Program-made: the position numbers and the translations under genes
Notes under the pieces: model-generated
Told to the model about the DNA's origin: nothing
What the model saw: the letters and a program-made list of their open reading frames with translations, nothing else
Database searches by the model: none
Shown: positions 1,064 through 48,029 of the stretch, in pieces
Layout of the letters: each line of letters starts with the position of its first letter
Position numbering within the stretch: the stretch's first letter is position 1
Virus record (IMG/VR): IMGVR_UViG_3300042691_036629
Location: 53,500-117,499 of that record
From: a virus
Taxonomy: Duplodnaviria; Heunggongvirae; Uroviricota; Caudoviricetes
Strand: one strand, 5' to 3'
Length of the DNA stretch: 64,000 nt

Positions 1064-1815
1064 TACTTACCTAAAACTTCTTTTTGGTAGTATTCATCAA
1101 ATCCTGATAGTAAATTACTAATGTTGTAAGTTTTATCATTAGTGATAACTTCATCAATGAAACCAAATTCTAAAGCTTCGTAAGCGTTTAACCATTTATC
1201 TCTACGAGCTGCTTCTAATACGTAATTGAAATCACGACCAGAATTTTCAGCTAACATCTTAAATAAGATGTAATTGTATTTTTCAGACTCCATTTGAGAG
1301 ATACGGTTATCTTCGATATGACCTTGAGCACCAGAACTAACTTGGTGGATCATAACTTTTGAAAAGTTCAAAGAAGAACGTTTTCCTTTTGTACCAGATG
1401 AAAGTAAGATTGAACCCATTGAAGCAGCCATACCAGTGTTGATTGTTTCAATATCAGAATTGATATATCTCATAACATCAACCATACTCAAACCAGATTT
1501 AACAGAACCTCCTGGTGAATCAATGTGCATTTTAATATCTCTCTTCTCAATCGAGTCTAAATACATTAACTGTGCTTGAACAACAGTTGACATATTATCA
1601 TTCACCACACCAGCAACCCAAAGAATACGATCTCTCATTAAACGTGAGAAGATATCCATTTGTGTTACTCTCATTTCTCTTTCTTCTAAGATGTAAGGAG
1701 TTAATGAGTTCTCAGGAGAAATTCCATTCTCTAAATTTTTCTCGAAATAGTGAAGGTTCATAGATGAAATACCTTTACCAAGTGCGTACTTTTTGAAATC
1801 TTTACCGAAATCCAT
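1063..1815 (-). CDS. clpP: ClpP-family serine protease (possible prohead protease)
   Basis: 250 aa. ClpP-like catalytic Ser/His context: GMAASMGSILLSSGTKGKRSSLNFSKVMIHQ. Confidence 0.75.
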   Translation of the reverse strand: MDFGKDFKKYALGKGISSMNLHYFEKNLENGISPENSLTPYILEEREMRVTQMDIFSRLMRDRILWVAGVVNDNMSTVVQAQLMYLDSIEKRDIKMHIDSPGGSVKSGLSMVDVMRYINSDIETINTGMAASMGSILLSSGTKGKRSSLNFSKVMIHQVSSGAQGHIEDNRISQMESEKYNYILFKMLAENSGRDFNYVLEAARRDKWLNAYEALEFGFIDEVITNDKTYNISNLLSGFDEYYQKEVLGK

Positions 1816-11906: not shown

Positions 11907-12518
11907 ATGTTAAAAATTAAAACTTATAACCAATTTAATTCGAGTGATTGGTTTGGACCTGTTAAGGTTCTAGATATAAAAGATCGTAAAGTTTATACAA
12001 CTTCTGGAAATTTTGTAAATAATTCTATAAATCAAATAAAGAAAGGTTATACATATGTTTTTAGATTGAATGGTGATATGATAGTTGATACGGGTATGTC
12101 TTGTGTCGATTTAGTTATTTTAGTTGATACTGGCTCAAATTATAAGATGTTGGCAATTCTAAGAAATAAAGATCCATTTAAAGGCAAGTGGGCTTGTCCT
12201 GGTGGGAACATTGACGAAGGTGAAGAACCAATAGATGCTGCTATTCGTGAGTTGGAAGAAGAAACAAGTTTAAAAGTACCTAAAAGATATTTGAGATTTA
12301 TTGATGTATTCAATGAACCGTGGAGAGATCCAAGAAATAAGAATTGTATTTCTTATGCTTTCTCAGTTATTTTAAGTGATATACCTGAAACATCCGCGGC
12401 TGATGATGCTGATGAATGTGATTGGATTGATGTTAGTTATAGTGGTGAAACTATTGTTGATATGGCATTTGATCATAAATCTGTTATAAAAGGTGCTATT
12501 AAAAGAATTAAAAGATAA
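11907..12518 (+). CDS. Nudix hydrolase
   Basis: Nudix box GGNIDEGEEPIDAAIRELEEETSL (Gx5Ex7REuxEExGu). Confidence 0.8.
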   Translation: MLKIKTYNQFNSSDWFGPVKVLDIKDRKVYTTSGNFVNNSINQIKKGYTYVFRLNGDMIVDTGMSCVDLVILVDTGSNYKMLAILRNKDPFKGKWACPGGNIDEGEEPIDAAIRELEEETSLKVPKRYLRFIDVFNEPWRDPRNKNCISYAFSVILSDIPETSAADDADECDWIDVSYSGETIVDMAFDHKSVIKGAIKRIKR

Positions 12519-12536
12519 AGATTAAATATATAAGAA

Positions 12537-13658
12537 ATGAGAAAGTATAACCAATTTATTTTAGAAAAATTAAATAATGATTTAGTCATCTTATTAGAGG
12601 GGTATTTATATTCGACATCCGAATTTCATAGAAAGATTTCCGAATTATCTAGACAATCTGGTAGAGTGGGTGATATTTCTAAAATCATTGATGAATTCTT
12701 AAATAGAAAAGCAGATCCATTTCATCAATTAAAAGATGATTCAATAACTCAAAACTTTTTTGATACTACCAATCGAGTTGATATGGTTAGTTTCACTATG
12801 AATGATAAAGTTCCTAAAGATTGGGATAATGATGAAGATCCAGATTTGCCATACACATTAGGGAGATCTGAAATGAAAATTGGTAGAGTTTTGAGATCTA
12901 TTGTGTCTATGATACAAAGTTCAAAATCTATTAATTTTAATTTAACCGATAAAGATGTTGAAGACTTTGTGAACGCATATAAATCATTAGAAATAAATGA
13001 TAAATGGCAGTTTAAAATTGTTAAAGGTGATGATATTATCAAATATTATAACACATCTAATTACTTAAACACTAATGGGACTTTAGGAGGATCTTGTATG
13101 GGTGATGCTAGGGGTAAATTAAAACTATATGTGGAGAATGATAATAAAGTTGGTCTTTTAATTCTACACAATAAAGAAACTGATCAAATTTGTGGTCGAG
13201 CTTTAGTTTGGAAACTAAAAAAGTCACCTTGTGATGCTAAATATTTTATGGATAGAGTTTATGTAAATAATGATTCTGATGTTATAAAGTTTAAAAATTT
13301 TGCTAATGAGAATAAATTTTTATATAAACAGAAAATGAATAGTCATACGGAAACAAATGTTTGTTTTTTATATGATAATAAGGAATTTTTTGGCGAAATA
13401 TCTGTCAAATTAGAAAAATCAAACTTCAATAAATATCCATTCATTGATACACTTTGTTTCTTAAAAGGTAAAAAGTTATCAAACTTACCATCTAAGAATT
13501 GTAATTGGTTACATGAAACGGATGGTGGTGATGATCAATGTTATGAATGTGATGGTGAATGTTTCTCAAGTTACAATGGAATCTGTGATGTTTGTGGAGA
13601 TGGTCACATCTTTTTGAAAAGAAAAGGAATTGAAACTAAAATAAATAGATTAGTATGA
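12537..13658 (+). CDS. SCM-core paralog family protein with C-terminal Cys-rich Zn-ribbon
   Basis: 373 aa. Contains GTLGGSCMGD...VGLLILH...GRALVW...FMDRVYV...YPFIDTL, then CYECDGECF...CDVCGDGH. Confidence 0.55.
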   Translation: MRKYNQFILEKLNNDLVILLEGYLYSTSEFHRKISELSRQSGRVGDISKIIDEFLNRKADPFHQLKDDSITQNFFDTTNRVDMVSFTMNDKVPKDWDNDEDPDLPYTLGRSEMKIGRVLRSIVSMIQSSKSINFNLTDKDVEDFVNAYKSLEINDKWQFKIVKGDDIIKYYNTSNYLNTNGTLGGSCMGDARGKLKLYVENDNKVGLLILHNKETDQICGRALVWKLKKSPCDAKYFMDRVYVNNDSDVIKFKNFANENKFLYKQKMNSHTETNVCFLYDNKEFFGEISVKLEKSNFNKYPFIDTLCFLKGKKLSNLPSKNCNWLHETDGGDDQCYECDGECFSSYNGICDVCGDGHIFLKRKGIETKINRLV

Positions 13659-15676
13659 GATATATAAAAGAATTTTTCAATTACATAAAAGAAGAATGGT
13701 CAAAGAATGAACCAATTCCAGAAATATTAGATAAAGAAAAAGGATTAGCTGTTTTCCTAATCGGTGCTCCCGGTATTGGAAAGTGCTTAGAATATAATAC
13801 ACCCATTTTAGTGAATAATAAAATGACTAAAATTGGTAAATTGATAGATAACTATAACACCGAATCAAAAATTGGTGAAATAAATATTCCTGTTAAAAAC
13901 TTATATGTTAAATCATTAAATGATAGTGGTGAGTTTGTGGAAAATGAGATTTCGAGTTTATATAGAGGCTATTCAGAAAAGTTAATAAATATAAAAACAC
14001 AAACGGGTGTTGATATAAAAGTTACACCTATACACCCATTATTAGTTTTAGAAAAAAACGGTGATATTATTTGGAAAAAATCATCAGAAATAACAATAGA
14101 TGATAAGTTAGCCAGACCTAGAATAATAAATAACACTTTTAATAATAAATCAAAAATAAGTAATGAATTATCAAGGATTATTGGTTATTCGTTAAGTGAT
14201 GGTAATTTTATAAAAAATAAAAATAGTAAATTTCTAACACTAACAAATATAGATATTGATATAATAGATGATTTTAGAAAATGTGTCGAAAAAGAAAATA
14301 AAATATTAACAGTAAAATCTAAAAAAATAAGACATAGTGTTCAATATTCAGATGATATTAAATTAGGAAATCGAAGATTTAAAAAAGATAAATATGATTT
14401 TATTTCAAATATTTCTGAAATATGTGGTGATTATATTTTTGGCAACAAATCACATAAAGTTAGAATTCCGGATGATATAATATCAAACAGTGAATCATTA
14501 AAACATTTCTTAGGTAGTTATTTATCTTGTGATGGTTCTGTATTTGAAAATAGAGTTGAATATTACACATCGTCATATGAAATGGCTACTGATTTATCTT
14601 ATGCACTTTTAATGTTTAATTTATTATTATAAATTAATTCCACCATGTCATCATTTGGTATAAATCCACCAATATTTGTATTAGTTTTTTCAATTGGTTT
14701 AATTTTTTTTCTACTACATCTAATATATTTATTTAATATTTCTCCAAATAAATTAAAATCATCACTTGTTACCCTGACTATATATGATAAAAAATCCTTA
14801 TTATTTAAATTTGTTTTTTTATTTTTTATTACCGAATTTATACCAGAAGATGAAACTGGATATAGATTTACTAGAAGTTATAAATATAGAAGAGTAATAA
14901 CGAAAAAACGTTTTAATAAAATATGTAATTTTTTAAATGAGAATAATGTTTATATACCAGAAACATATATTAATCATCACAATAACTTATTTTTTGATAA
15001 AATAACTAATATATCAACAATAGAACATAATGATTATGTTTATGATATAGTCTTAGATAAACATCATAACTTCATAGGTGGTAACTTACCAACAATACTA
15101 CATAATTCACACTTTGTGAATAATTATTTACATACAAAAAATACAAACATTAAAGACTTCTCAACTGATGATATTTCACTTCTTTACACAAAAGATCCAA
15201 ATGTTTATTATAAAGGAAAAGAAAAAGAAGAAGGTGGTAGAACAAAAAATGCGTCTGAATTAAACTTAATGAAGATGAAAGGTTTTATGAAAACTGGTCA
15301 AAACTTTATCTATGATACAACCGGTGCTGGTAAAGAATATACTGATACTGGTTATGAACACATTAAGGATATATTTGATTTAGCAAGAGAGAATGGATAT
15401 GAAATAGTTTTTATTCACTTATTATCTACATTAGAAACATCAATTGAACAAGATAAATTAAGATCGAGACACGTTGATCCACACTATATTAAATGGGCTT
15501 ATGCCAAACAAATGGGTGGTGAAGTGGATGGTGTTAAGGTAACTGGTAATATGAAAAGATATAAGGAATTAGGACCAGATAAATATTATGTTATAACTTC
15601 TATTGATAAAAAATATAAGTTTTATAAATTAGAAGGAGATAAACTTCTTAAAAGAAAAAATGATAAATGGGTTTAA
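13655..15676 (+). pseudogene. P-loop NTPase gene carrying a LAGLIDADG intein, interrupted by in-frame TAA at 14630-14632
   Basis: N-extein ends LIGAPGIGK and C-extein begins SHFVNNYLH, so the spliced Walker A is GAPGIGKS. The two track ORFs (13655..14632 and 14645..15676) are in the same frame, separated by a single ochre codon. Confidence 0.5.
13784..15106 (+). mobile_element. intein (Hint plus LAGLIDADG endonuclease domain) in Walker A motif
   Basis: Starts CLEYNTPIL and ends VYDIVLDKHHNFIGGNLPTILHN before Ser. Two LAGLIDADG-like blocks: IIGYSLSDGNF and LGSYLSCDGSV. Confidence 0.7.
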
Positions 15677-16336: not shown

Positions 16337-17098
16337 TTACCACAAATCGAACTCTTTATTCTTCTTTTTATTTATGGTTTTTGATTCATCTATATATTCA
16401 AAATTTTCGATATCAAAAATAGCATCTATTTTAAAATCTCTATAATCAGCAACTCCATTCAACTCTTCCCAACCTCTATTTATCAGCTTCCATCTTCTAG
16501 AACTAATTCTTTTTTGATTATACATTTTAGCTAAGTTATTTACAAGAAACTTTCTATGTTTAGCATGTGAAATAGCACCTGGATAGTTTTGATATAAGTT
16601 TTTACCATCATAAGATATACCACAACAACTAATATCAACATTAGCAATCAAATCAATAAACGTTTGCGTGTATAAATCTTGAGTAACATCGGATGGTCTT
16701 TCAACAGACATAACTCTTGGTCTTATAAGTTGAACCACTTTAGTTCCTTTAACATAAGAATAGGGTTCAGATATAACCATATTCATATCATAAACAGATG
16801 ATAGATCTTTAGGTGCTAAATTTTCATGATAAATATATCCATTCTCAACTAATACTTTATCAACAAAATTCATTGATTTAGTACCAATTAATATATCCAC
16901 ATCATTGATTTTTTGACCGGCTATAATATCTCTTAAAGCTCCACCAAAAACTCTAACTAACTTATTATAAATTATTCCACGATCTTTTAATTCATTAGTG
17001 ATGAAAGTATCATCACCAAATAACAAAGATGAATCAAACTCTAAGTATTCGTCTAATTTTTGTTTAATCATTATATTCAAGTTTAAGTTTCTTATCAC
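16337..17098 (-). CDS. polymerase-beta-type nucleotidyltransferase (CCA-adding / poly(A) polymerase head-domain-like)
   Basis: FGGALRDIIAGQKINDVDILIG matches the GGxVRD...DxD head motif. At 253 aa it holds only the head/neck. Confidence 0.5.
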   Translation of the reverse strand: MIRNLNLNIMIKQKLDEYLEFDSSLLFGDDTFITNELKDRGIIYNKLVRVFGGALRDIIAGQKINDVDILIGTKSMNFVDKVLVENGYIYHENLAPKDLSSVYDMNMVISEPYSYVKGTKVVQLIRPRVMSVERPSDVTQDLYTQTFIDLIANVDISCCGISYDGKNLYQNYPGAISHAKHRKFLVNNLAKMYNQKRISSRRWKLINRGWEELNGVADYRDFKIDAIFDIENFEYIDESKTINKKKNKEFDLW

Positions 17099-18788
17099 CT
17101 ATTTGTAGTATGTAAAGACCTTTAGAAAGTTGTGGTAACTCTACATCAAAATAATTATCACCTAATTGTAAATCTAATGATTTTTTATAAAATTGTTTAC
17201 CGGTTAAATCATATATCAATAAGTCTTCAACCTTACTAAAAGATGAATGTAAAGAAACATTTATTTCATTTGTAATTGGATTTGGATAAACCGTTAAGTT
17301 CTCAATATTTAATTGAATTAATATAGACTCCCAATCTGTTCTTTTATAATCACCATTATAATCAGTTTGTTTTAATCGATAGTAAGTTATTCCAGTTTCA
17401 ATATTTCGATCAATTGCTTGATAGTTTATTCTTTGAGTTGAATTACCAGCACCTGGTAGAGTTGTAACTATATCATAATCTAAACCATCTTTTGACTTTT
17501 CAATTGTGAAATAATCATTATTGTGTTCTGATGCTGTTGACCATCTTAATTTAACAACACCATCTTCAAATTTAACTTTAAAGTAAATCAACTCAATTGG
17601 TAAAGCAATACCATTTGATTCATAACATCCAACATCTGGATTACCAATACGACTATAATGTCTCAAATCATCAGTTGGTGCTCCGGTTGTTGTTCCCCAA
17701 TCTATACAAGGTGATGTACCAGAAAGTGTATAATCATCACTAGCACTATTTGTGAATAGTGGATTTGATATTAACGGTGATGTATTTGATGTAGCTGATT
17801 TTATCTCAGCTGAATTTCCATAACAACAATTTGTCATGTTAACGGTAGCGGCATTATTATAAACATCATTGAAAGTATTACCTAAATTATTATAAATAAT
17901 TGTATTTATTAAATTTATTTTAGCTGATGATAAAGCCAAAACACCTCCAGTTCCAACAGAAGCATTACCATTAGCAGTTATAGTACAGTTCATAATATTT
18001 AATGTACTATATGTATTCATAGCAACAATAACAGCCTCTCCTGATGATGTATTATTTTCATAAAATAAACAGTTTTCTAATGTTAGAGTAGAGGTAGATC
18101 CAACACCAAAGAATATAGCACCTCCGTAATTAGTAGCGGTATTTGAATAAAAAATTGAATGTTTTATTGATGATGATGATGTTGGTGATAATTCTATTGA
18201 AATAGCACCACCATAATATTCAGCATTACAATTTTTGAAAGTACAATAATCGATGGTTATTCCCTCAGCAGAATAAATAACACCACCTCGGTGATGTAAA
18301 GAGGCAGTTCTTGTATCACAATTATCAAACTGACAATAAGTTGCTTTAAATCCTGTACATCCAGCAATTATTTTAATTGCTCCACCACCTCCTGGATCAC
18401 CTCCATCAGAATTTTTATGATCCTTTATAATTAATTTAGTGATTGTGATATTATCATTATTTGTGTTATTTAACAATAACCATCTTGCGGTACTACCTGC
18501 ATCAAAAATAGATGTAGGTACACCAGATGATAAAGCCGCACCAGAAATTACAAAACCTTCATCATCAGTACCAACAGTAATACCTGTCTCAGAATAAGTT
18601 CCTGCTTCAACGAAAATAGTATCATTAGAACCTAAATTATAGGTGCTGAAAACGTTTGCTAATGTTAATTTTGGTGTAATAGATGATGTTCCATTGTTTG
18701 TATTGTTTCCGGTTGAACTAATATAATAATTAGTTGCTAATGAACTAAATGATAATAATAGTGTTAGTAAAAATAATATTCTTTTCAT
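17064..18788 (-). CDS. secreted right-handed beta-helix repeat protein with T9SS (Por) C-terminal sorting domain
   Basis: Signal peptide MKRILFLLTLLLSFSSLA. Many NxxGGAI/TxxNN beta-helix repeats. C-terminus VYPNPITNEINV...IYDLTGKQ...LSKGLYILQIGDKKLKLEYND. Confidence 0.7.
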   Translation of the reverse strand: MKRILFLLTLLLSFSSLATNYYISSTGNNTNNGTSSITPKLTLANVFSTYNLGSNDTIFVEAGTYSETGITVGTDDEGFVISGAALSSGVPTSIFDAGSTARWLLLNNTNNDNITITKLIIKDHKNSDGGDPGGGGAIKIIAGCTGFKATYCQFDNCDTRTASLHHRGGVIYSAEGITIDYCTFKNCNAEYYGGAISIELSPTSSSSIKHSIFYSNTATNYGGAIFFGVGSTSTLTLENCLFYENNTSSGEAVIVAMNTYSTLNIMNCTITANGNASVGTGGVLALSSAKINLINTIIYNNLGNTFNDVYNNAATVNMTNCCYGNSAEIKSATSNTSPLISNPLFTNSASDDYTLSGTSPCIDWGTTTGAPTDDLRHYSRIGNPDVGCYESNGIALPIELIYFKVKFEDGVVKLRWSTASEHNNDYFTIEKSKDGLDYDIVTTLPGAGNSTQRINYQAIDRNIETGITYYRLKQTDYNGDYKRTDWESILIQLNIENLTVYPNPITNEINVSLHSSFSKVEDLLIYDLTGKQFYKKSLDLQLGDNYFDVELPQLSKGLYILQIGDKKLKLEYND

Positions 18789-19834: not shown

Positions 19835-20296
19835 TTATTTACATTTTTTTAAAATTTCTTTACAAGTTTCTAACCATTCAAAATGTTCAACATTTACCGG
19901 TTTACAAGGATCACCACTTCTAATAATAGCCCATAATTCATCCGGATCATCATCTAAATGAAAAATAAAGTTTTTACCTTCTAAAAACTCAATCTTATCA
20001 ACGTGTTCTGTAAATTGTATTCTTTCTCTTGGAATACCAACCAATTCAGCAACATCATATAACTCTTGATTTTGTTTTTCAACCCACCACCAACCCTTGG
20101 CTAAAGCTGGTTCAGTAGCACATCGACTTGTTACAATCCAAACTTCATAACCTTCATTTACTAGTTTGGTTGCGTATTCTTGTACATCTTTACGTGACAT
20201 AGTGCTATCAAAATCCATAGATATTTTATTTCTCTTCATATATAATATACTTTTTATTCTCATCATTACTGTATATAACTCGATAAACTTTAGCAT
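19835..20296 (-). CDS. HAD-superfamily 5'(3')-deoxyribonucleotidase-like protein (start probably at an internal Met)
   Basis: DFDST (DxDxT) motif near the N-terminus. An upstream TTTTTT run suggests the real start is near Met-20 or Met-27 (about 20239 or 20218). Confidence 0.45.
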   Translation of the reverse strand: MLKFIELYTVMMRIKSILYMKRNKISMDFDSTMSRKDVQEYATKLVNEGYEVWIVTSRCATEPALAKGWWWVEKQNQELYDVAELVGIPRERIQFTEHVDKIEFLEGKNFIFHLDDDPDELWAIIRSGDPCKPVNVEHFEWLETCKEILKKCK

Positions 20297-21059
20297 ATGT
20301 CATGTTAGTATTTTTAACTACATCCATTATACTATCATAGACAATATTACATTCAATATCTAAAACCTTAATACTATTAGTTGGTTTTTTTCTTTCTCTT
20401 TTTCTCCTTATTAGAATATCATCTATTTTAAGATCGGCATTTTTAAAAATCCATATAAAGTTAAATGCACTATTACTTTTATATCTAACATTACAGGAAA
20501 TGTTTTTCCTAGAAAATCCCAATTCCAATTCAATATCTTTAGCACTTTTCCATTCTTTGATAAAATTACCATCCAAATCATATTGCAATATTGGTTTTTT
20601 TATACTCTCTGCGTTATTTTTAATCCACTCTTCACTTTTATAAACCTTAGTCCCTCTTCTTTTTTCACTTGCTAAAATCTCTTTCTCCGTTCTTTTAGCC
20701 TTTTTCTTAGTTTCGGATATCATTTTTTTAGTTTTATCCGTATGTTTTAATCCACAAGATCCTTCACCACCAAGAGTTAAATTCATTCCAAATTTATAGT
20801 TGTATCTTCGAAAACTATTATATTCAATTATATACTTTGTCTCCAACTCAGATAAATATTCCTCACTACAAAAATCTTCAAATAGTATCTCAAAACTATG
20901 TTTATCCCAACCATATTTAACTAATGATTTATACAAAACTCTTTGTTTTTTACACCATAAACCTTTATAAGATCTTACTCTCTTTTCCAAATTAAAAGTT
21001 TTACCAATATAAATCCTGTTAGTTGGTGAAATTATTTTATAAATATATCCCTTTTCCAT
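20226..21059 (-). CDS. GIY-YIG homing endonuclease
   Basis: MEKGYIYKIISPTNRIYIGKT...R...E core, with a basic C-terminal DNA-binding region. Confidence 0.7.
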   Translation of the reverse strand: MEKGYIYKIISPTNRIYIGKTFNLEKRVRSYKGLWCKKQRVLYKSLVKYGWDKHSFEILFEDFCSEEYLSELETKYIIEYNSFRRYNYKFGMNLTLGGEGSCGLKHTDKTKKMISETKKKAKRTEKEILASEKRRGTKVYKSEEWIKNNAESIKKPILQYDLDGNFIKEWKSAKDIELELGFSRKNISCNVRYKSNSAFNFIWIFKNADLKIDDILIRRKRERKKPTNSIKVLDIECNIVYDSIMDVVKNTNMTYAKVYRVIYSNDENKKYIIYEEK

Positions 21060-21149: not shown

Positions 21150-22865
21150 ATGAGTAATATTTTAAGATATGATAGTTTCCTAAACGAGAGTAAACTCAAT
21201 TTACTACTTGAAGGTAATATGGTTTATAAAGATGATTTCAAAGAAATTTTGAAGTCGGTTAATAGTCCACTTTCAAAAGAGATTTTAGATTTAGAGGGTG
21301 TTGACGTTGATGTTGATACAAACTTTATTGATATTTCTGATGATAAAGACAACTTTATACAATTTAAATCCGATAAAAAGTCTAAAAACTCTTGTGTTAT
21401 AATTGATTTTGGCGCATCATTGTCTATCTTATCAAAAGAAATATTTACATCATTTGCTAAATTATTTGAAGATCCAAGAGTCGAAAAAGGTTTTTTGAAT
21501 TGGTATGAATTACTTCAAAGAAACCAAAAAGCTACTATTACTAAACAGATAACAAGTATTGATGATTTTAATGATGAGGATGTAAAAAATAGATTAAAAT
21601 GGTATCTTGATCAAGGACGTAAAATTTATCATATAAGATTTAATAGAAGTGGTGAGAATATTGATCTTATCATTGAAGATTATGGTCTTAAAATTGGTGA
21701 GGGAGCGGTTTCCTCACAAGAAGTTAGAGTTGGATCATTCGTTCAATCACTATTGAAGAAAGCTGGTAAAGAAGTTAAAGGAACTGAAGTTGAAGATTTT
21801 GTAACTAAGTTTTCAATTGCCACTAAAGCTAAAAAAGAAAATATATTCTCTGATTTTGAATTGGTTGAAGGTGATGATATTAAAAAGTTTTATTATGAAG
21901 GTAATTATTATCGAGGTGGTAATCATACTTTAGGAGCATCTTGTATGAGACATGCTAGATGTCAAGACTACTTAAACATATATTCTAAAAATCCTAAAAG
22001 TGTTGGATTAGTTATATTAAAATCTAAAGAAGATCCAACTAAAATTATAGGTAGAGCTCTTCTTTGGAAAAAACCAGAATATATGCCATGGGATGGTGGT
22101 GATGATGAAGGAGTAATAACGAAATATAATTTAGTAAAACATACCGAATCAGAAGGAAAACCATTTATGGATAGAATTTATGTGAGTAATTCACCAGACC
22201 AAGAATTGTTTATTAAATACGCAATTAAAATGGGATATGTTTATAAGAAAAATCAAAATATTTCAGAGGAAGAGTTTATGTTTAATGGTTCTGATTCAAA
22301 CATCGGAACAATTAAAGTTGATTTAGAAATGAACGGCTTTAGTAAATACCCTTATTTAGATACTCTTTGTTATTATGAATGGGATTATGGATTCTTAACA
22401 AATGAGCAAAAATTAGTAATAAATAGTAACTATTACGAACTAAGAGAAACTGATGGTGGTAATGGAGAAGAATGTGAAAGATGTGGTGGTGATGAAAGAA
22501 TTGATTGCTATGAATGTGAGGGTGATGGAAGATATGATTGTGAAGAATGTGGTGCCTCTGGTGAAGTAGAATGTTCTAATTGTGATGGACACGGTACTCT
22601 ACCTTGTGATAACTGCGAAGGAACTGGAAAAGAAGACTGTTCTAGTTGTGATGGAACTGGAGAAGATGATGAGGGAAATGAGTGTTCTTATTGTAGTGGA
22701 TCAGGTAAACAAGATTGTTCTGAATGTGAGGGTGACTGTACTAACGAATGTGATAGATGTGGTGGTGATGGTACCAGAGAGTGTGGTGATTGTGATGGTG
22801 AAGGTAGAATTTGGTGTAATCGATGTGATGGTGATGGTAGAATTGATTGTCCAGATTGTACATAA
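21150..22865 (+). CDS. SCM-core paralog family protein with C-terminal DnaJ-like CxxCxGxG zinc-finger array
   Basis: 571 aa. N-terminus MSNILRYDSFLNE. Contains HTLGASCMRH...VGLVILK...GRALLW...FMDRIYV...YPYLDTL, then about nine CxxCxGxG repeats. Confidence 0.55.
   Translation: MSNILRYDSFLNESKLNLLLEGNMVYKDDFKEILKSVNSPLSKEILDLEGVDVDVDTNFIDISDDKDNFIQFKSDKKSKNSCVIIDFGASLSILSKEIFTSFAKLFEDPRVEKGFLNWYELLQRNQKATITKQITSIDDFNDEDVKNRLKWYLDQGRKIYHIRFNRSGENIDLIIEDYGLKIGEGAVSSQEVRVGSFVQSLLKKAGKEVKGTEVEDFVTKFSIATKAKKENIFSDFELVEGDDIKKFYYEGNYYRGGNHTLGASCMRHARCQDYLNIYSKNPKSVGLVILKSKEDPTKIIGRALLWKKPEYMPWDGGDDEGVITKYNLVKHTESEGKPFMDRIYVSNSPDQELFIKYAIKMGYVYKKNQNISEEEFMFNGSDSNIGTIKVDLEMNGFSKYPYLDTLCYYEWDYGFLTNEQKLVINSNYYELRETDGGNGEECERCGGDERIDCYECEGDGRYDCEECGASGEVECSNCDGHGTLPCDNCEGTGKEDCSSCDGTGEDDEGNECSYCSGSGKQDCSECEGDCTNECDRCGGDGTRECGDCDGEGRIWCNRCDGDGRIDCPDCT
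22465..22860 (+). repeat. coding tandem array of about 9 Cys-rich CxxC(x)GxG units
   Basis: Repeated TGTGA(A/T)GGTGATGG...TGT units. The antisense ORF at 22701..22889 is an artefact of this repeat. Confidence 0.7.
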
Positions 22866-23350: not shown

Positions 23351-24931
23351 TTAAACTAATTCAGGTTGTTCTTTAGAAACAAGATCCTCTAACTTCCCAC
23401 GTATGATGGTCAAAGTCGTTTCGTTATAGAACTTACCATCTTTGAAGATAACTTTCAGCTCATTATCTTCCGAGTTAACATCATCCCAAGTACATTTATC
23501 AATTAATGTAAACTCACCATCAACTTTAACTACTTTTAGTAATCCAGTTGCTGATTTTTTAGTACCATCATCAGTGATAGGGTCTTTAAAGATGTTGATA
23601 CCTTCAACATCACCATCAACTTCAATTTCGATGTAGGTTGCTTTTTGAGCCATACCATGTGTATCGCGTGTTACCATCTGAAGTGAATAGGATCCCACAC
23701 CGAGAACGATGTTTGTTGTTGCAAATCCTTTAGCTGATAATCTTTCATAAATACTCTCAGCTCTCTTATAGTTAATAGAGTCACCATAGATAGCACCAAT
23801 GTGTGAGTCTAATTTTTTATATCCGGTTGATGTTTCAGTACCACCAAAGATATCCCATAATAACTCGATAACACCTTTATATTGAGGTTGTTTGTATCTT
23901 TCATTATAAGAAGACATATCTGGAGTTATGCTACCACAAATAATATCTACTGGATCACCAGAGTCAGGACGGATAACAAGTTTGCCATCTCTTGCTAAAA
24001 TTTCATCTTTTAATATTTGACAGTACTCCGTAATAACTCTCCATAAATCCCAAGTATCAGATACTAATGACAATATTCCAGTTGGAAAAGTTCTTAATAA
24101 ATACCTAAATGTCTCAACTTCAAAGTTACCAACCTTATCCCAAGAACCATCTTTAGTCTTAATGAAAAATCCAGTCAATGAACACATAATAGCATGTTCA
24201 GATGCGATAACAGAGTTGATACAAACATCTTTTTCATCATAATACATTCTAGCAGCTGGTATAACAGGTAGTGTATCTGAACCTCTCGAACAAGTAGCAA
24301 ATCCTAAACCACTATTAACAATAGCTGATTTACCACCCATACCTCTCATTGAGAAATCATGATTTTGATAGTCAACAAACCACAAACTCTCCGGATCTGT
24401 TTTTGTGATCCACTTTGTTGATAACTCTCTTAATGCGAATGATAGCGTCGCTGAAGTTGGTGCTTGCCAAGATTCAGCAGAATTAATAGTTTCTAAGTAA
24501 TTAACTATCCAGTCAAAAACTTGACCATTTAAAGGTTTAGTATTAACGATAGTCGATAATGGTATTTTATACGGAATTCTCTCACCTTCAGTGATTGCTC
24601 TAAACTCAATCGGAAGATATCCCAATTTATGTAGTTCTTTGAAGTGAGTAACATCAAAAGGATCACTCAGCATTAACATATCTGTTAAATCCTTCCCAAA
24701 TTGATCGATTTCTTCAATTGGTCTTTGAAAAAAGTTAACATCCCAATCTTGTTTCATTTTTCTCACCATCATTTGTTGACCAAACGAAACAATTTTACCA
24801 TTATTTGGACAATTGCTATATTTACCACTCCTTGGTGTAAAATTTGATTGCATCAAAACACTACCCACTGGTAGCATTGGTTTGTGTCCTGTTTTATACA
24901 CATCGGTATAATAAATTTCTAAAAAGTTCAT
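23351..24931 (-). CDS. nicotinamide phosphoribosyltransferase (Nampt/NadV-like; possibly Namat-type)
   Basis: 526 aa. Conserved LVIRPDSGDP active-site block of the Nampt family. Confidence 0.75.
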   Translation of the reverse strand: MNFLEIYYTDVYKTGHKPMLPVGSVLMQSNFTPRSGKYSNCPNNGKIVSFGQQMMVRKMKQDWDVNFFQRPIEEIDQFGKDLTDMLMLSDPFDVTHFKELHKLGYLPIEFRAITEGERIPYKIPLSTIVNTKPLNGQVFDWIVNYLETINSAESWQAPTSATLSFALRELSTKWITKTDPESLWFVDYQNHDFSMRGMGGKSAIVNSGLGFATCSRGSDTLPVIPAARMYYDEKDVCINSVIASEHAIMCSLTGFFIKTKDGSWDKVGNFEVETFRYLLRTFPTGILSLVSDTWDLWRVITEYCQILKDEILARDGKLVIRPDSGDPVDIICGSITPDMSSYNERYKQPQYKGVIELLWDIFGGTETSTGYKKLDSHIGAIYGDSINYKRAESIYERLSAKGFATTNIVLGVGSYSLQMVTRDTHGMAQKATYIEIEVDGDVEGINIFKDPITDDGTKKSATGLLKVVKVDGEFTLIDKCTWDDVNSEDNELKVIFKDGKFYNETTLTIIRGKLEDLVSKEQPELV

Positions 24932-24966
24932 AGTTTTTATTTTTTATAAAGATAATAATTATTCTA

Positions 24967-25950
24967 TTATTCCAAAACATTTTTGTTGAAAATTTCAGTA
25001 CTCCATTTTTTATAAACTCTACTATCTATATTATCATTTAATATTTTACTCTCCATGATATATGATTCATATAAAGACATTTCCTTTTCAAATAAAATCT
25101 CAACATCTTTTATAAAACCTTTAGATTTACTCTTCAATGACTTTATTCTACTTTCAACCGAAACTGTTGTTATTCCTATTTTATAATAATCACCATTATT
25201 TATTCTCAAATAATATAATTTAGATTTTTTATCCTTTAATTCTGGTTTATCTTCAAATAATTTCTCAGTGTAACCACCAACTAAAATATTATTAAAAACC
25301 ATATTCTTAATTTTACACTCAAAACAATATTGACCGCTTTGGTGTTTTTGAACACTCTTAACAAATAGCCCATGATCCGGACAAATTATATCTATTTTCG
25401 ACCTCTTGTTAATATAAGTATCTCTATTATATTCAGGATAAATATATTTATCATTATAAATATTTGATAATTTTTCTATAACATCATCATAGGTTTGTGT
25501 TTTATTGAGTACTCTATTATCATTAGCACATAATTTACACCCATAGGTGTTATTACTTAATAAATGTATATTCGGTTTTGTATAAAAATCACCATGTTCT
25601 GAACAAGTTATTTTTATATAATCACCAACAAACCCATTGTAGTTTGATAAATCGTATTTGAATTTATCACCAAACTTCTCATAACATCTACCCAAGAACT
25701 CATCTTTTGAAATGATATTTGGACCCTTTACATAATCTCTTTTTATTTTCTTTTTTTCAATTTCCCAACATAATTTACATCCATATTTTGAACGTAAATG
25801 CTTATCAGGTGTTTGAAAAAAATCTTTATGTACTGGGCATATGATTATAGATTTAGTTTTAGCATTCACATAATTAAACTTACTATAATCAAATTTATTA
25901 CCAAATTTAACTATCGATTTTTTTATAAATTCTTCTAACATAAGTATCAC
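24967..25950 (-). CDS. Zn-finger repeat protein with C-terminal GIY-YIG-like/T5orf172-like domain (putative homing endonuclease)
   Basis: Three CPxHGxF...GCKLC-type units, then YYLRINNGDYYKIGITT. Confidence 0.45.
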   Translation of the reverse strand: MILMLEEFIKKSIVKFGNKFDYSKFNYVNAKTKSIIICPVHKDFFQTPDKHLRSKYGCKLCWEIEKKKIKRDYVKGPNIISKDEFLGRCYEKFGDKFKYDLSNYNGFVGDYIKITCSEHGDFYTKPNIHLLSNNTYGCKLCANDNRVLNKTQTYDDVIEKLSNIYNDKYIYPEYNRDTYINKRSKIDIICPDHGLFVKSVQKHQSGQYCFECKIKNMVFNNILVGGYTEKLFEDKPELKDKKSKLYYLRINNGDYYKIGITTVSVESRIKSLKSKSKGFIKDVEILFEKEMSLYESYIMESKILNDNIDSRVYKKWSTEIFNKNVLE

Positions 25951-25986
25951 TTCTTTTATACTTATATATATAAGAACCTATTACCT

Positions 25987-26844
25987 CTAAAATAATTTAG
26001 ATTTCCAGTCTTTATTTTCTTCAATAAGAGATATTTTTTGTAGATAATCAACTACTAATTCATAATCATTAACATCATTATCACCAGTGTAGTTCCATTC
26101 TACTTCATTCAACCAAGTAGAAGCTTGATCTTTTTCTAAGTTATATCTCCAAGAAATTTCATTTGAATAGAAATCATGTAATGATGGGTTTTTAATCTCA
26201 TTTGCGACACCACCAACGACTTTCATAACTTCTCTTAACAAATCTTTGTGTTGTTCATAGATCTCGTTTCTAACAGCAACTACGAAACAGGGCCAAGGTG
26301 TTACAACTTCACCGATACATTTACATTTCTCTGCTTTAACAAATGGATAAGTTGTAAACTTTTCCCATAAGAAAACATCAGACTGCCCATTCTCTAAAGC
26401 CCATAAACCACCATAAACATCACCAACAACTTCAAACTTTAAATCATCGGTATTCCAACCTCTTTGAAATGAGTTTACATAAGCCATTAAGTGTGAACCA
26501 GAACCTTCTCTTGAGATAGCAAATGTTTTACCTTTGATATCATCAGAAGTTTTCATTTCTGAATTAAAAGGTACGTGAATACCCCATCGTAATGGACTTT
26601 TAACATAAACTGTTAATATTTTGGCATCCAAACCATCTAAAATTGCTTTTGTAATTCCTTCAGTAAGAAGAACTGCGATGTCAATTGAACCTGCTTGTAA
26701 ACCTTTAATCATTTGACCAGTACCACCAGTCATATCAGACCAGTGTAGATTTACATCTAAATCATTTAATCTTCCTTCTTCAATGGCTAAACGCCAAGGT
26801 AAGTTGAAGTGTTCGGGAACACCTCCTATTTTAAAGTTTTTCAT
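25987..26844 (-). CDS. hypothetical protein (periplasmic-binding-fold/NMT1-like?)
   Basis: 285-aa ORF sitting between the Nampt-like and Prs-like genes. Assignment is weak. Confidence 0.35.
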   Translation of the reverse strand: MKNFKIGGVPEHFNLPWRLAIEEGRLNDLDVNLHWSDMTGGTGQMIKGLQAGSIDIAVLLTEGITKAILDGLDAKILTVYVKSPLRWGIHVPFNSEMKTSDDIKGKTFAISREGSGSHLMAYVNSFQRGWNTDDLKFEVVGDVYGGLWALENGQSDVFLWEKFTTYPFVKAEKCKCIGEVVTPWPCFVVAVRNEIYEQHKDLLREVMKVVGGVANEIKNPSLHDFYSNEISWRYNLEKDQASTWLNEVEWNYTGDNDVNDYELVVDYLQKISLIEENKDWKSKLF

Positions 26845-26849
26845 ATCTT

Positions 26850-27623
26850 TTATATAATACTTTTATAATCAATCAATTCTAAATTATTTAGAACATAATA
26901 GTCATACTTACTATTAGTAGTAAATATCTTATCATAACACTCAAGACTTGTATTTGGATCTTGAATAGTCATATGACTAACTGCTAAGTATATCTTACCA
27001 ACATTTCTCTCCTTTAACATATTCAATAGACCTATAAATGTACCACCCTTTACACATAAATCATCCAATACTAATATATCTCTACCACCAAAATCAGAAC
27101 AATCAATAACTTGCTTCAAATCATGTGTTTTTAAATCTCTAGACTTACTAGCACAATAAACATCACCATTAAATCCTATTTTATCAACTAATTTATTTAT
27201 CCATTTAAATGAACCAGCATCTGTTGAAAATAATATTGGATTAGAATCAATTCTACTTAAAACACTTGATATAAATTTAGAATTATCAACAACTCTAATA
27301 TTATTCAATCCCATTTGAGTGGAATCAGAATGTGGATGGAAAACATAAACTTTACTAAAATTACATGAGTTGATAAAGTCACAAACTATCTTTAGTTCAA
27401 ATGATTGATTATCAAAAAATCTACGGTCATGTTGCTGTTGAAACATACATGGTATAAATAACTCAACATCTTTAATTCCATTAAAATCACAAACCTCTTT
27501 GATGGATTTTATGAAAAAAAGGTCCTCATATGAATTTATTCTTTCGGTTATTATAGGTTCACTAAAATCCTCTACTTCAACATAAAAGCTACCATCCGGA
27601 TATTTCTTTTTTAAATATTTCAT
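26850..27623 (-). CDS. ribose-phosphate pyrophosphokinase (Prs)-like protein (possibly Adps-type)
   Basis: PCMFQQQHDRRF aligns to PYfgYaRQDRK. ILVLDDLCVKGGTF resembles the PRPP-binding loop. At 257 aa it is shorter than canonical Prs. Confidence 0.6.
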   Translation of the reverse strand: MKYLKKKYPDGSFYVEVEDFSEPIITERINSYEDLFFIKSIKEVCDFNGIKDVELFIPCMFQQQHDRRFFDNQSFELKIVCDFINSCNFSKVYVFHPHSDSTQMGLNNIRVVDNSKFISSVLSRIDSNPILFSTDAGSFKWINKLVDKIGFNGDVYCASKSRDLKTHDLKQVIDCSDFGGRDILVLDDLCVKGGTFIGLLNMLKERNVGKIYLAVSHMTIQDPNTSLECYDKIFTTNSKYDYYVLNNLELIDYKSII

Positions 27624-28408
27624 AATAATTCTTCTTTAAATAAAACTGACTCTTTTAATCTTCTCAATAATTTATACTTTATTCCTAAAACTCTACTAAT
27701 CCTAAGTAAAGGAACTTTATTATACAATAAATCCTTTATCTCATCAACCCTATCTAAAATAGATCCCATCTCACATTTATCACCATGCCATCTATTATAA
27801 TTAGCAGAGTCACACTCAACATTACAAATATAACAAATTTTTTTATTTTCTTCTATACCCTTTTTTATTTTTTCAATCTCATCATTGGATAATTCTCTAT
27901 TCTTATTCCAAGGTATTTTTCCCTTACCTGCTTCTGATATTTTTTTTCTATGTTCATCTGAAAAAGTTCGACCAGAATGTGATTTATTTCCAAATCTAGC
28001 TTTTATTAAATTTTTCTTCCACTCACCATCAATTACTTTACCAATGTGTGATTTAGATGCCTTCTTCCTAGACTCTTCACTCCAAACTCTTTTTATTTGA
28101 CCATCACCACCATCTGTCATATTTACTAAATTACCTAAACCTAGATCCTTTCTACCATAAAATAAAATCAGATTTTTTTCTAGACTTTTCACATATTCAT
28201 AATCATCGGTCTCACATACTATCTCAATTGAATAATCATCATTCAATAAAGAAACTGTATTTAACCAATGTTTATTTCTCCTTTTTTTATTAAAAGCCCT
28301 ACTATACTTATTATAAGTTATATCAGATTTATTTTTTGTCCCTATACCAATATAGAAAATGATATTACTATCATTTCTTATATGTTTATATAAATAATGT
28401 TTTCCCAT
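27620..28408 (-). CDS. GIY-YIG homing endonuclease
   Basis: HYLYKHIRNDSNIIFYIGIG...R...E, followed by basic repeat tracts. Confidence 0.55.
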   Translation of the reverse strand: MGKHYLYKHIRNDSNIIFYIGIGTKNKSDITYNKYSRAFNKKRRNKHWLNTVSLLNDDYSIEIVCETDDYEYVKSLEKNLILFYGRKDLGLGNLVNMTDGGDGQIKRVWSEESRKKASKSHIGKVIDGEWKKNLIKARFGNKSHSGRTFSDEHRKKISEAGKGKIPWNKNRELSNDEIEKIKKGIEENKKICYICNVECDSANYNRWHGDKCEMGSILDRVDEIKDLLYNKVPLLRISRVLGIKYKLLRRLKESVLFKEELL

Positions 28409-40495: not shown

Positions 40496-40927
40496 ATGAA
40501 ATATCTAAAACTATTTGAAAAATTCACTATTGAAGAACTCATTGAAAATAATAAAAAGGCTAATGAAATACTAGAAGATATTAAAAGTATATCATATATC
40601 ATAGAAGATGAGGGATTTGATATTCAATATACCTTTCAATTCAGTAAAGATTGGAAACAATCATTTATAAATGTTGATGATTATAACACATCAAGAGATG
40701 CTGGTAGAGCTAGAAAAAAGATAAATGGAATTTCTTTAGTTATTCACAAAAATTCGATTGAGACATCTAAAAAAACTAGACTTGATTTTTCACCTTCTGA
40801 TAATGAAATACTTAATAATTTTATTGTTCTTCTGAAAGAACACTTAGATTATATAGATGGAAAATCTATTCTAAGTGGGCGCGGTAATTTTAATAATTCA
40901 ATGAGTATTTTAATTCAATTTGGTTAA
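40496..40927 (+). CDS. hypothetical protein, MKYLKLFEKF N-terminal family
   Basis: 143 aa, with TAATATATAC just 5' of the ATG. Confidence 0.5.
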   Translation: MKYLKLFEKFTIEELIENNKKANEILEDIKSISYIIEDEGFDIQYTFQFSKDWKQSFINVDDYNTSRDAGRARKKINGISLVIHKNSIETSKKTRLDFSPSDNEILNNFIVLLKEHLDYIDGKSILSGRGNFNNSMSILIQFG

Positions 40928-41640
40928 GAGTAGAATTTATCAGAAAACACACTATAATTATTACCAACAGAATTATGATCGTTTATAACAGCAAAAACAA
41001 CCTCTTTATATAAAGATGAATAACCTTCTTCAACTAAAACCTTTCTAAATAATTCTGACATCACATGGGGATCATTCCCAAAAACACCACAACCAAAAGC
41101 TCCCAAAACCAAGTTCTCAACACCATGTTTAGATGGGATAGTAAGCATCAATCTTATCTTTTGGAGTGTAATCTCTTCATAAGTCTCTTTATCATAACTA
41201 CGACTGTTTAAGTTTATAGCAGCTATCGTAATAATATCACACTCAACCGGTTCCATATCATTATAATCCTTATCTTTAAAGAATGTAGCATCTGATGTAT
41301 AAAGACAAGTACCATCTTCTAATGGATAAAAATCTTCTACAATTGAATTGATTAAGTTAGAACATCTAAATAAACATTCTTCTTGAGCTCTGGCTCCATT
41401 ACGAACTCCACCACCCGGTTTCTTATACGAAGCCATATTCAAGCCACAAGTTTTACCAGACTTAGATAACTCTACAAGAGCAGATACCGTATCTAAATTA
41501 ACGACCTTAACATTACCTTTATAAACTGATAAATAAGGTCCAACTATCTCATTATTTGAATGTTGTGTTGTAACACCATCATTAAACTTCACGGACTTGA
41601 TTTGAGTATCGTGAAATATCTCTACTAAATTATTTCTCAT
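40924..41640 (-). CDS. macro-domain-like / microbial PARG-like (DUF2263-type) protein
   Basis: KKPGGGVRNGARAQEECLFRCSNL matches the GGG-x6-8-QEE signature of PARG/macro-like ADP-ribose-processing enzymes. Confidence 0.5.
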   Translation of the reverse strand: MRNNLVEIFHDTQIKSVKFNDGVTTQHSNNEIVGPYLSVYKGNVKVVNLDTVSALVELSKSGKTCGLNMASYKKPGGGVRNGARAQEECLFRCSNLINSIVEDFYPLEDGTCLYTSDATFFKDKDYNDMEPVECDIITIAAINLNSRSYDKETYEEITLQKIRLMLTIPSKHGVENLVLGAFGCGVFGNDPHVMSELFRKVLVEEGYSSLYKEVVFAVINDHNSVGNNYSVFSDKFYS

Positions 41641-47956: not shown

Positions 47957-48029
47957 GGTCAGAAGGGACAGGATTCGAACCTTAATCTCTCTCTTAATGA
48001 GAGGCTCTTTCCAGTTGAGCTACCCACCT
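47957..48029 (-). tRNA. tRNA-like gene, anticodon loop AUUAAGA (possibly tRNA-Leu UAA), weak T-stem
   Basis: GGATTCGAACC on the plus strand, so the T-loop is read on minus. Acceptor stem AGGUGGG/CCCUUCU pairs 6 of 7. D-arm GCUC..GAGC. Anticodon stem CUCUC/GAGAG. Confidence 0.5.

Follow-up and report, generated by a model that had tools for sequence, protein, structure and literature searches.

In a stretch of 64,000 nucleotides of uncultured phage DNA (positions 53,500 to 117,499 of the caudoviricete record IMGVR_UViG_3300042691_036629; the whole stretch is called the window below, and its GC content is ~28%), we describe a module of five minus-strand open reading frames (ORFs), all intact and packed into 23351-28408. 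The module combines a gene related to phosphoribosyl pyrophosphate (PRPP) synthetases (Prs), a gene related to nicotinamide phosphoribosyltransferases (Nampt), two homing endonuclease genes (HEGs), and a gene of the Ca3427 family, whose product has a periplasmic-binding-protein (PBP) fold. From 5' to 3', neighboring genes are separated by a 4-bp overlap and then by 5, 36 and 35 nt, a spacing that makes the five genes a single co-directional block, in which the two enzyme genes lie 1.9 kb apart. A third endonuclease gene lies 2.3 kb downstream, with two plus-strand genes in between. The features are as follows.

27620..28408, minus strand: homing endonuclease gene with a GIY-YIG-like N-terminus and NUMOD3 (NUMOD3 9.7e-8; PHROG 314/655/19446)
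26850..27623, minus strand: short (S-type) pyrophosphokinase of the Adps clade, 257 aa, predicted ADP-ribose pyrophosphokinase (adps tree, NCBIfam scores)
25987..26844, minus strand: Ca3427-family gene with a PBP fold, 285 aa, between adps and namat (PF22384, 2X7P, AlphaFold2 model)
24967..25950, minus strand: homing-endonuclease-like gene, 327 aa, with Zn-finger/DUF723 repeats and T5orf172, between the PBP gene and namat (Pfam borderline; PHROG 681 3e-40)
23351..24931, minus strand: S-type homologue of nicotinamide ADP-ribose transferases of the Namat clade, 526 aa (9W5X, Namat tree)
23354..23452, minus strand: 3' tail of namat, last ~33 codons, with L011-type sequence and a putative recombination breakpoint (sliding identity)
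20226..21059, minus strand: third homing endonuclease gene (Pfam GIY-YIG 4.5e-7 and NUMOD1 1.6e-6; PHROG 5123)

A preliminary description, made from the letters and ORFs of the window, had proposed a nicotinamide adenine dinucleotide (NAD+) reconstitution module that is interrupted and flanked by homing endonuclease genes and that could be either classical NadV/Prs salvage or the Adps/Namat pair of the pathway NARP1. Every ORF that it named in the module lies where it was placed, on the minus strand, and the endonuclease genes are real, both the T5orf172-like interruption and the NUMOD3 and GIY-YIG/NUMOD1 flanks. It overlooked the PBP gene, the atypical active-site signature of the Prs-like protein, and the recombinant state of the locus.

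We propose that 23351-28408 is a NARP1-type NAD+ reconstitution operon of a jumbo phage, with a variant Adps, a PBP gene, and a recombinant history, a reading to which we assign a probability of roughly 0.7. It is the best explanation of the gene content, family placement, conservation, and related-locus contexts that we computed, and from these we infer the activities, the anti-defense role, the function of the PBP protein, and the endonuclease mechanism. In the proposed sequence of events, NADase effectors of the host would break NAD+ down into ADP-ribose (ADPR) plus nicotinamide, the Adps-clade enzyme would pass the β,γ-pyrophosphate from ATP on to ADPR, at its terminal ribose, and so form ADP-ribose pyrophosphate (ADPR-PP), and the Namat-clade enzyme would condense ADPR-PP with nicotinamide to yield NAD+. 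The PBP protein, as a co-selected accessory, may bind or process a small molecule of the pathway, and endonuclease-driven co-conversion may have imported adps and most of namat. NARP1 itself is known as a recently discovered and widespread phage counter-defense; new here are a short Adps subfamily whose acceptor and donor signature is changed, the repeated presence of a Ca3427-family gene in the slot for accessory genes, and a mosaicism associated with endonuclease genes.

Family placement of the two enzymes

The product of 26850-27623 belongs to the Prs-like family, as had been proposed, yet the 'RQDRK-like' motif ascribed to it reads QQQHDRRF and lacks the first Arg. Its matches to Pribosyltran and Pribosyl_synth are weak and below the Pfam cut-offs, while PHROG 619, 'ribose-phosphate pyrophosphokinase', is matched at 6e-43. 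It scores 67.9 bits against TIGR01251 (cut-off 113) and at most 65 bits against the PRK equivalogs (cut-offs 296-518); the Adps of FADO, verified in vivo, also falls below the TIGR01251 cut-off (96.5 bits), and deletion of adps sensitizes this phage to DSR2 (10.1101/2024.02.11.579819). By BLASTP, the protein reaches 92 bits to the biochemically verified ICP1 Adps versus 45-62 bits to E. coli, human, and archaeal Prs. The placement that had been asked of this protein was carried out by neighbor joining (NJ) on Kimura-corrected distances, as were all our trees, with 200 bootstraps. The window protein and other S-type sequences fall with the Bas63, ICP1, FADO, Vibrio phi 3, and L-type sequences inside an Adps clade with 100% bootstrap support, which excludes the Prs of E. 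coli, Crocinitomicaceae, human, and two archaea (the human PRPS1 reference was checked against PDB 8DBC, 704 bits over residues 1-318). Moreover, namat lies three genes downstream on the same strand, within the ten genes that Osterman et al. allow for a Namat homologue.

The RPDSGD block reported for 23351-24931 is present as VIRPDSGDPVD, with a Pfam NAPRTase match of 2.4e-28 and a PHROG 448 match of 1.7e-156. Among PDB entries, the protein matches the SpβL1 Namat (9W5X/9W5W; PMC12774641) at 4e-110 (372 bits), versus 4.5e-44 (154 bits) for Xanthomonas Nampt and 3e-36 (128 bits) for human NAMPT. Its identities across 2,045 phage records are bimodal: a group at 34-46% includes Bas63 (JohannRWettstein) and ICP1, and a group at 25-29% consists of T4-like and KVP40-like NadV. 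BLASTP scores follow the same division, with 370 bits to FADO and 348 to ICP1 versus 138 to KVP40-like NadV and 110 to Aeromonas NadV. In the second tree, also with 200 bootstraps, the window protein joins SpβL1, FADO, ICP1, Bas63, and Vibrio phi 3 in a Namat clade with 100% support, set apart, again at 100%, from the NARP2-type Nampt of Vibrio QD01 and Aeromonas 25 NadV. The SpβL1 Namat sequence was taken from the 9W5X alignment; the phage SPR record (OM236515) showed no NARP1 genes within the 50 kb fetched and was discarded as an SpβL1 source.

The clade placements, together with the missed Prs models and the absence of a nicotinamide mononucleotide (NMN) adenylyltransferase (NMNAT) domain (PF01467) among the 52 ORFs of the window (64 kb, in a genome of at least 172 kb), therefore support the assignment of the pair to NARP1 rather than to Prs plus NadV. 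Of the two branches left open in the preliminary description, the NARP1 branch is thus favored by both alignments and both placements, and neither the trees nor the window gave the outcome that would have spoken for the ordinary route, namely both proteins grouping with cellular Prs and NadV alongside an NMNAT gene.

In that ordinary route, the Prs-like enzyme would make PRPP, the Nampt-like enzyme would convert it to NMN, and an NMNAT of the phage or the host would complete the synthesis, as in NARP2 or NadV/Prs salvage. Annotation pipelines indeed label the two proteins Prs and NadV, Namat enzymes keep some activity with PRPP in vitro (PMC12774641), and a Nudix protein of the NadM-Nudix type is encoded in the window, which covers part of the phage genome. 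The Adps here also lacks Arg87, a residue that in ICP1 Adps touches ADPR on its adenine side and that matches an ATP-binding Arg of PRPS (PMC13586617); since Arg87 binds ATP in true Prs as well, its loss makes the protein no more Prs-like. Set against these points are the nesting of both proteins in experimentally anchored clades, the higher identity to NARP1 Namats than to NARP2-type NadV, the failure to reach any Prs family threshold, and the lack of an NMNAT domain in the window, and we regard classical salvage as very unlikely. In Bas63, anti-defense activity persists in a host without NMN-utilizing enzymes. The NARP2 pair of KVP40, NadV and NatV, shares with our module a Nampt-superfamily enzyme and NAD+ as end product, whereas the window protein lies outside the NadV clade and has a Prs-like partner.

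Active-site signatures of the short Adps and its partner

The module has the same arrangement of a Prs-like gene upstream of a Nampt-like gene as the NARP1 operons of Bas63, SpβL1, FADO, and ICP1 (10.1101/2024.02.11.579819; PMC12774641; PMC13586617), and it shares with them, besides the clades, Lys185, Asp212/Asp213, Namat Arg306, and the phospho-His. It differs from them in an Adps that is 20-35 residues shorter and carries Gln87, Val216, and Tyr18, in a Namat clamp that reads GSYSLQM, in the splitting of the pair by PBP and endonuclease genes, and in its Bacteroidota hosts. With canonical Prs/PRPS, the Adps shares the fold family, the catalytic-loop Lys, the PHSD His, and the DD pair; it lacks their N-terminal β-α unit and C-terminal α11-α12 region, and the first Arg of RQDR is Gln.

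Our comparison of Adps residues rests on those named in PMC13586617, in ICP1 numbering. The window protein and the subfamily of 255-265 aa to which it belongs keep His121, Asp161, the catalytic Lys185, Asp212, Asp213, Cys215, and Phe221, and the first five (His121 to Asp213) are invariant in the 120 best homologues, which are 60-100% identical to the window protein. Of the ADPR adenine contacts Phe18, Arg87, and Phe92, the window protein retains the last, reading Tyr18, Gln87, and Phe92, and so departs from the published signature. In the pyrophosphate loop, expected as Cys215-Asp-Gly-Ala/Gly-x-Ser/Thr followed by Phe221, the window protein has C-V-K-G-G-T-F, in which Cys215, Gly218, Gly219, Thr220, and Phe221 fit, Asp216, an ATP phosphate contact (PMC13586617), is replaced by Val, and Gly217 by Lys; the verified FADO Adps has Ser216 and Tyr217. 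Arg87 is kept in every other Adps and Prs that we aligned and Asp at position 216 in most, whereas Tyr at 18, Gln at 87, and Val at 216 are found in all 120 S-type homologues. Such invariance across a diverged family argues for selection and not decay. The S-type proteins hence put to the test the published sequence-structure rule for spotting Adps, of which they break the Arg87 and Asp216 parts, and tools that use this rule, or INPHARED genomes, would miss or misname the group.

The Namat retains its catalytic core, with Arg306 in IRPDSGDP and the phospho-His in SEHA, both invariant in 120 S-type Namats. An alternative assignment of the phospho-His to the His of a 'GH' motif, which is Phe in the window, was rejected; the phospho-His maps to the conserved histidine of EHS/EHA. 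The selectivity-clamp helix reads GSYSLQM in the window and GSFTYQY in SpβL1. Position 392 is Tyr in the window and aromatic in all 120 S-type Namats, and Ser391 is retained in every one. Position 396 is Met in the window and varies across the family (Tyr 52, Phe 22, Met 18, His 14, Gly 9), while Tyr394 is replaced by Leu in 118 of 120 and SpβL1 His207 by Phe in 116 of 120. In human Nampt, the positions of Phe392 and Tyr396 hold Gly and Lys. The clamp-loop Arg40 aligns to a Lys of the window, in a loop that is 1-3 residues longer and variable, where the alignment is unreliable.

These substitutions raise the question of whether the S-type pair uses another acceptor, such as a modified or phosphorylated ADPR, so that it would make a different dinucleotide or counter a different defense product. 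The invariance of Arg87→Gln, Phe18→Tyr, and Asp216→Val in the 120 Adps homologues would fit such a change, as would the near-fixed Leu at 394 and Phe at His207 and the variable 396 of the S-type Namats, given that adenine-side contact residues are changed in both enzymes. Yet in the locus L196 (related loci are given by L numbers) an S-type Adps that is 70% identical to the window protein and shares its Gln and Val is partnered by a Namat with the canonical GSFTYQY clamp and the conserved His, which makes ordinary ADPR-PP the likelier intermediate. Moreover, the aromatic residue at 392 and Ser391 are kept throughout the S-type Namats, and both families are nested in clades verified on ADPR. 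We therefore consider another acceptor improbable, and retain ADPR as the predicted substrate.

Decay of the locus, in which endonuclease insertion or recombination would have left a non-functional adps or namat, appears most improbable. In its favor are the three endonuclease genes within or near the module, an Adps N-terminus shorter than that of any other aligned sequence, the missing Arg87, and the contig L025, from a metagenome variant of the window phage, on which the namat call is split into two ORFs. Against this, all five ORFs are intact, the endonuclease genes sit between coding sequences, the unusual residues bear the signature of purifying selection in the 120 homologues, and 19 contigs read carry the identical Adps sequence. 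The two L025 ORFs (5974-7469) encode 53 and 442 aa; a frameshift, a misassembly, or variation within the population could account for the split.

The Ca3427-family gene between adps and namat

The gene between the two enzymes, 25987-26844, matches PBP2_Ca3427_like (PF22384) at 50.5 bits (cut-off 27) and Candida albicans Ca3427 (PDB 2X7P) at E=5e-27 with 26% identity. Its AlphaFold2 model (mean predicted local distance difference test 89.6) superposes on 2X7P with a template-modeling score of 0.90 and a root-mean-square deviation of 2.3 Å; SsuA, Thi5, ThiY, and TauA are the next-best structural matches. The protein has no signal peptide and is predicted to be cytoplasmic. A polar cluster of E11, H12, E161, and T164, equivalent to Ca3427 Glu11, His12, Glu164, and Thr167, is present and invariant. 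The structural study of Ca3427 assigned no function, described the groove as hydrophobic, and proposed a hydrophobic or lipid ligand (PMC3073944); in the literature that we searched, we found no link between this family and NARP1, nor any mention of the family after that study. The phage protein has loops rich in Gly/Ser/Thr at the N-termini of two helices and a large number of invariant Trp, Phe, and Tyr residues, features that would suit a ligand of anionic aromatic or pyridinium type but are no proof of one. With the fungal protein (2X7P/2X7Q; PMC3073944) and the Bacteroidota homologues it thus shares PF22384, the polar residues, and the missing signal peptide; it differs from them in being phage-encoded, in lying in a NAD+ reconstitution operon, and in having no MsbA-like exporter gene before it.

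Among known phages this gene is scarce: the protein has no PHROG match, tblastn against 50,697 phage records gave no match, and a single-protein scan of IMG/VR found none, while a profile scan of IMG/VR found one locus, L026, flanked by adps and namat. Metagenomes hold thousands of homologues, which fall into two context classes. The bacterial class comes from Flavobacteriales (Crocinitomicaceae, Fluviicola, Lishizhenia), where the gene directly follows an ABC exporter gene whose best match is MsbA (487 bits versus a cut-off of 602) and overlaps its stop by 4 bp in 64 of 80 bacterial genome loci (L031-L110) and likewise in 64 of 80 metagenome loci; of the latter 80, 64 follow the MsbA-like ABC gene and 5 lie inside NARP1. 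Neither adps nor namat was ever found near the bacterial copies. The overlap with the exporter offers a lead to the cellular function of the orphan Ca3427 family, and ferrochelatase is often the next gene after the bacterial copy (19 loci). A housekeeping prs gene lies in the neighborhood in 26 of 80 bacterial loci; we set this aside as inherited synteny and not function, as prs is on the opposite strand ~2 kb away and a uracil phosphoribosyltransferase gene takes its place elsewhere.

The phage class places the gene between Adps-like and Namat-like genes, usually 20-90 bp upstream of namat, in at least ten loci (L003, L008, L011, L026 from IMG/VR, L027, L029, L114, L116-118, and L167) that range in GC from 0.29 to 0.48 and have differing flanks. 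Gene order is adps, then zero to four small ORFs or a methylase gene, then the PBP gene and namat; the small ORFs gave two Pfam matches, both at chance level and below curated cut-offs. In L114, the PBP is 93% identical to that of the window and lies directly between L-type adps and namat. A phage-only clade is recovered in 89 of 100 bootstraps, with 58 members (the context-verified copies and 52 further top matches) and all 80 bacterial copies outside; the divergent L026 was left out of this tree. At 104 positions the phage clade and the bacterial clade agree, with conservation of at least 90% on either side; at two they differ, both conservatively, and a search for phage-specific substitutions found none of note. 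Phages took the PBP gene from the host lineage, and the shared positions indicate that the phage protein does what the bacterial one does, so any role in the phage must use the biochemistry of the bacterial homologues.

Two characterized genes set a precedent for a third component in this slot. In 15% of NARP1 operons, the slot between adps and namat holds Adpp, a phosphatase with a Macro domain that makes ADPR from ADPR-1''-P (10.64898/2026.01.28.702374), and RyDEP, a glycosidase that converts cyclic ADPR isomers to ADPR, is inserted in a NARP1 operon (10.64898/2026.05.28.727677). NARP1-AP of Vibrio phage Gary (Adps-Adpp-Namat) and the RyDEP NARP1 of DyoEdafos thus resemble the module in having a third gene inside the operon, between its two enzyme genes, and Vibrio phage phi 3 likewise carries a Macro gene in this slot. 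The window insert differs from them in its Ca3427 type-II PBP fold, and no Macro or RyR domain match was found in the five module genes.

In the reading that we favor, the PBP protein is a co-selected accessory and would bind or process some small molecule of relevance to the pathway; we hold this to be about as likely as a passenger gene. This preference follows from its position in the slot, its retention across diverged cassettes, and its survival when both neighbors were replaced. The alternative, to which we give a little less than an even chance, is that a host-derived PBP, for instance a binder of lipid or sulfonolipid type that works with the MsbA-like exporter, landed once in a permissive, well-expressed gap between the genes of one NARP1 cassette and was inherited along with that cassette, with no role in NAD+ reconstitution. 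The 4-bp overlap with the exporter in two separate samples, the sharing of conserved positions between phages and bacteria, and the hydrophobic groove described for Ca3427 all fit a passenger, as do the slot's use by other genes, the single lineage to which most cassettes belong, and the S-type pairs that have no PBP gene. What a passenger accounts for less well is that the gene is kept beside namat while flanks diverge to ~50% identity (L026) and the cassette passes among phages whose GC runs from 0.29 to 0.48, that it was retained in the window phage although both neighbors were replaced, that both characterized NARP1-embedded genes feed the pathway, and that no homologue was found in the 50,697 phage records outside NARP1, with the sole IMG/VR copy again between adps and namat.

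Several points weigh against the overall reading of the module and against the accessory role in particular. The activities are predictions from sequence; an NMNAT gene could lie elsewhere in a genome of at least 172 kb, of which 64 kb was covered; and the Adps lacks both Arg87, on the adenine side of ADPR, and Asp216, at the ATP phosphates, while the Namat clamp has Met at Tyr396 and Leu at Tyr394. The bacterial partner of the PBP is an MsbA-like exporter and the groove was proposed to be hydrophobic or lipid-binding, neither of which points to NAD+ chemistry, and a new phage-specific function is not apparent, as phage and bacterial proteins have the same residues at the 104 conserved positions. 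The slot also takes unrelated genes (a C5-methylase gene in L003, the endonuclease gene in the window), which makes position alone weak evidence. The repeated occurrences are not independent, since most PBP loci stem from a single lineage of L-type cassettes, with identities to L011 of 75-86% for Adps and 76-98% for Namat, and the S-type pairs of L020 and L113 have no PBP gene.

A more specific and doubtful proposal joins two claims: that the PBP is a genuine third component of NARP1 in Bacteroidota phages, where, as an enzyme or a binder of small molecules, it would supply, shield, or channel a metabolite of the pathway, and that S-type Adps can pyrophosphorylate ADPR without the Arg common to all other Adps and Prs. 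Candidate metabolites are nicotinamide, a pyridinium nucleotide, ADPR, or an unidentified NAD+ breakdown product of Bacteroidota defenses. As Adpp and RyDEP each exposed a new layer of the NAD+ arms race, the recurrent PBP insert, of a different fold and seen only in uncultured Bacteroidota phages, is a candidate for a further one. If the PBP is a third component, it would give the first functional handle on a family that is conserved in Bacteroidota and fungi and whose structure was solved in 2011. The module also provides an experimental entry point to this orphan family, a suggested target for antifungals.

Other genes were seen in the same slot. In L196, a 159-aa Nuc_deoxyri_tr2 gene (6785-7264), possibly a nucleotide N-glycosidase, lies between the S-type adps and the canonical-clamp namat. 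In the cultured cyanophage Leptolyngbya phage Lbo-JY46 (L019), two unannotated ORFs of 247 and 252 aa (5658-7163) lie between Namat-like and Adps-like genes, with a SNO glutamine amidotransferase gene just beyond.

Recombination at the locus and its genomic surroundings

Comparison with related loci indicates that the locus is a recombinant. L011 comes from a sister phage closely related to that of the window: its flanks match the window on both sides of the module at 60-99% protein identity and its PBP is 76% identical; the L011 adps gives no tblastx match to the window adps (31% by BLASTP), and its Namat is 48% identical. The window adps and namat resemble those of L020 and L113 (68% and 65%), in which the two genes adjoin. 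By sliding identity, Namat residues 1 to ~480 are closer to L020 (S-type), after which the sequence becomes L011-type: over the final 40 residues, identity is 60% to L011 versus 48% to L020, and 26 of 30 residues in the tail are identical to L011 (window KDGKFYNETTLTIIRGKLEDLVSKEQPELV, L011 EDGKFYNETTLTIIRGKLEELVSNDQVELV). This switch would mark a recombination breakpoint near 23452, ~33 codons ahead of the namat stop. The PBP gene and the backbone are of L011/L114 type; most of namat, and adps, were probably imported.

The imported adps and namat each have an endonuclease gene directly at the 5' side. The upstream one travels with S-type adps: the unit of NUMOD3 endonuclease and adps, with the same 4-bp overlap, recurs in L194 (HEG 86%, Adps 80%) and L196 (53% and 70%), next to different downstream genes. 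The other, 24967-25950, whose T5orf172, MUG113, and DUF723 matches are all at borderline Pfam scores, is missing at this site in every related locus, where 20-90 bp separate the PBP gene from namat. Nuclease and DNA-binding domains, free-standing placement between coding sequences and never inside them, and variable presence in syntenic loci are as expected of homing endonuclease genes. Most simply, then, endonuclease-linked co-conversion may have replaced the resident L-type adps and namat and left the PBP gene in place. The locus would thus offer a clean natural example of homing-endonuclease-linked replacement of anti-defense genes between co-infecting phages.

The loci L020 (623,658 bp) and L113 (180,212 bp), both at 28% GC, carry the S-type adps-namat pair near genes for ClpP, an M50 peptidase, and NusA-like and topoisomerase IV-like proteins; they have many small ORFs without domain matches and may be very large phages. 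The same may hold for 17 S-type Adps clusters whose longest contigs measure 200-620 kb. That these contigs are bacterial chromosomes was considered and set aside, given the phage-like content of L020 and L113 and their ClpP, which is 71-77% identical to that of the window.

The picture that emerges for the source of the window is an uncultured jumbo phage, with a genome of at least 172 kb, of a Bacteroidota host, which is probably a Flavobacteriales bacterium of Crocinitomicaceae type. The identical Adps recurs on metagenome contigs, the longest of 171,766 bp. By megablast, the 5-kb module has no nucleotide match among the 50,697 phage records, and the best protein identities in that collection are 46% for the Namat-like and 34% for the Adps-like protein. 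A 574-aa protein at 17064-18788 (minus strand) combines a DUF5123/β-helix region with a type-9-secretion C-terminal sorting domain (Por_Secre_tail), which indicates a Bacteroidota host, whose type-9 secretion system the phage may exploit.

Two further genes that had been noted in connection with an ADPR theme are real, as annotation only. The microbial PARG gene at 40924-41640 (minus strand; Pfam 1e-20; TIGR02452 130 bits versus a cut-off of 50) lies 13 kb from the module, and its product could release ADPR from modified targets. The 203-aa Nudix protein at 11907-12518 (plus strand; NUDIX 2e-17), whose best curated matches are the Nudix half of NadM-Nudix and the ADPR-responsive repressor NtrR, is by these matches an ADPR-pyrophosphatase-type Nudix protein, and it has no NMNAT domain; an ADPRase would compete with Adps for ADPR.

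Close to the module, 21150-22865 (plus strand) encodes a 571-aa protein whose C-terminal ~150 residues form dense CxxCxGxG-like cysteine repeats; it has no match in Pfam or PHROG, and its homologues adjoin namat in L011, L027, L020, and L113. Elsewhere, 13655-15676 (plus strand) holds an intein with a LAGLIDADG domain: the ORFs 13655-14632 and 14645-15676 share a reading frame and are divided by an in-frame stop at 14630-14632, and a single AAA_33-like gene of 248 aa contains the extein parts (window 13639-13800 and 15107-15673) without a break in L008 and L029. Cell-like genes of the window include a formyltransferase (518-1063, minus strand) and ClpP (1063-1815, minus strand; 71-77% identical to the L020 and L113 proteins), as well as IF3, Band_7, M50 peptidase, phage integrase, GNAT, HAD_SAK_2, and dNMP kinase genes, and a tRNA-Leu(TAA) gene lies at 47960-48029.

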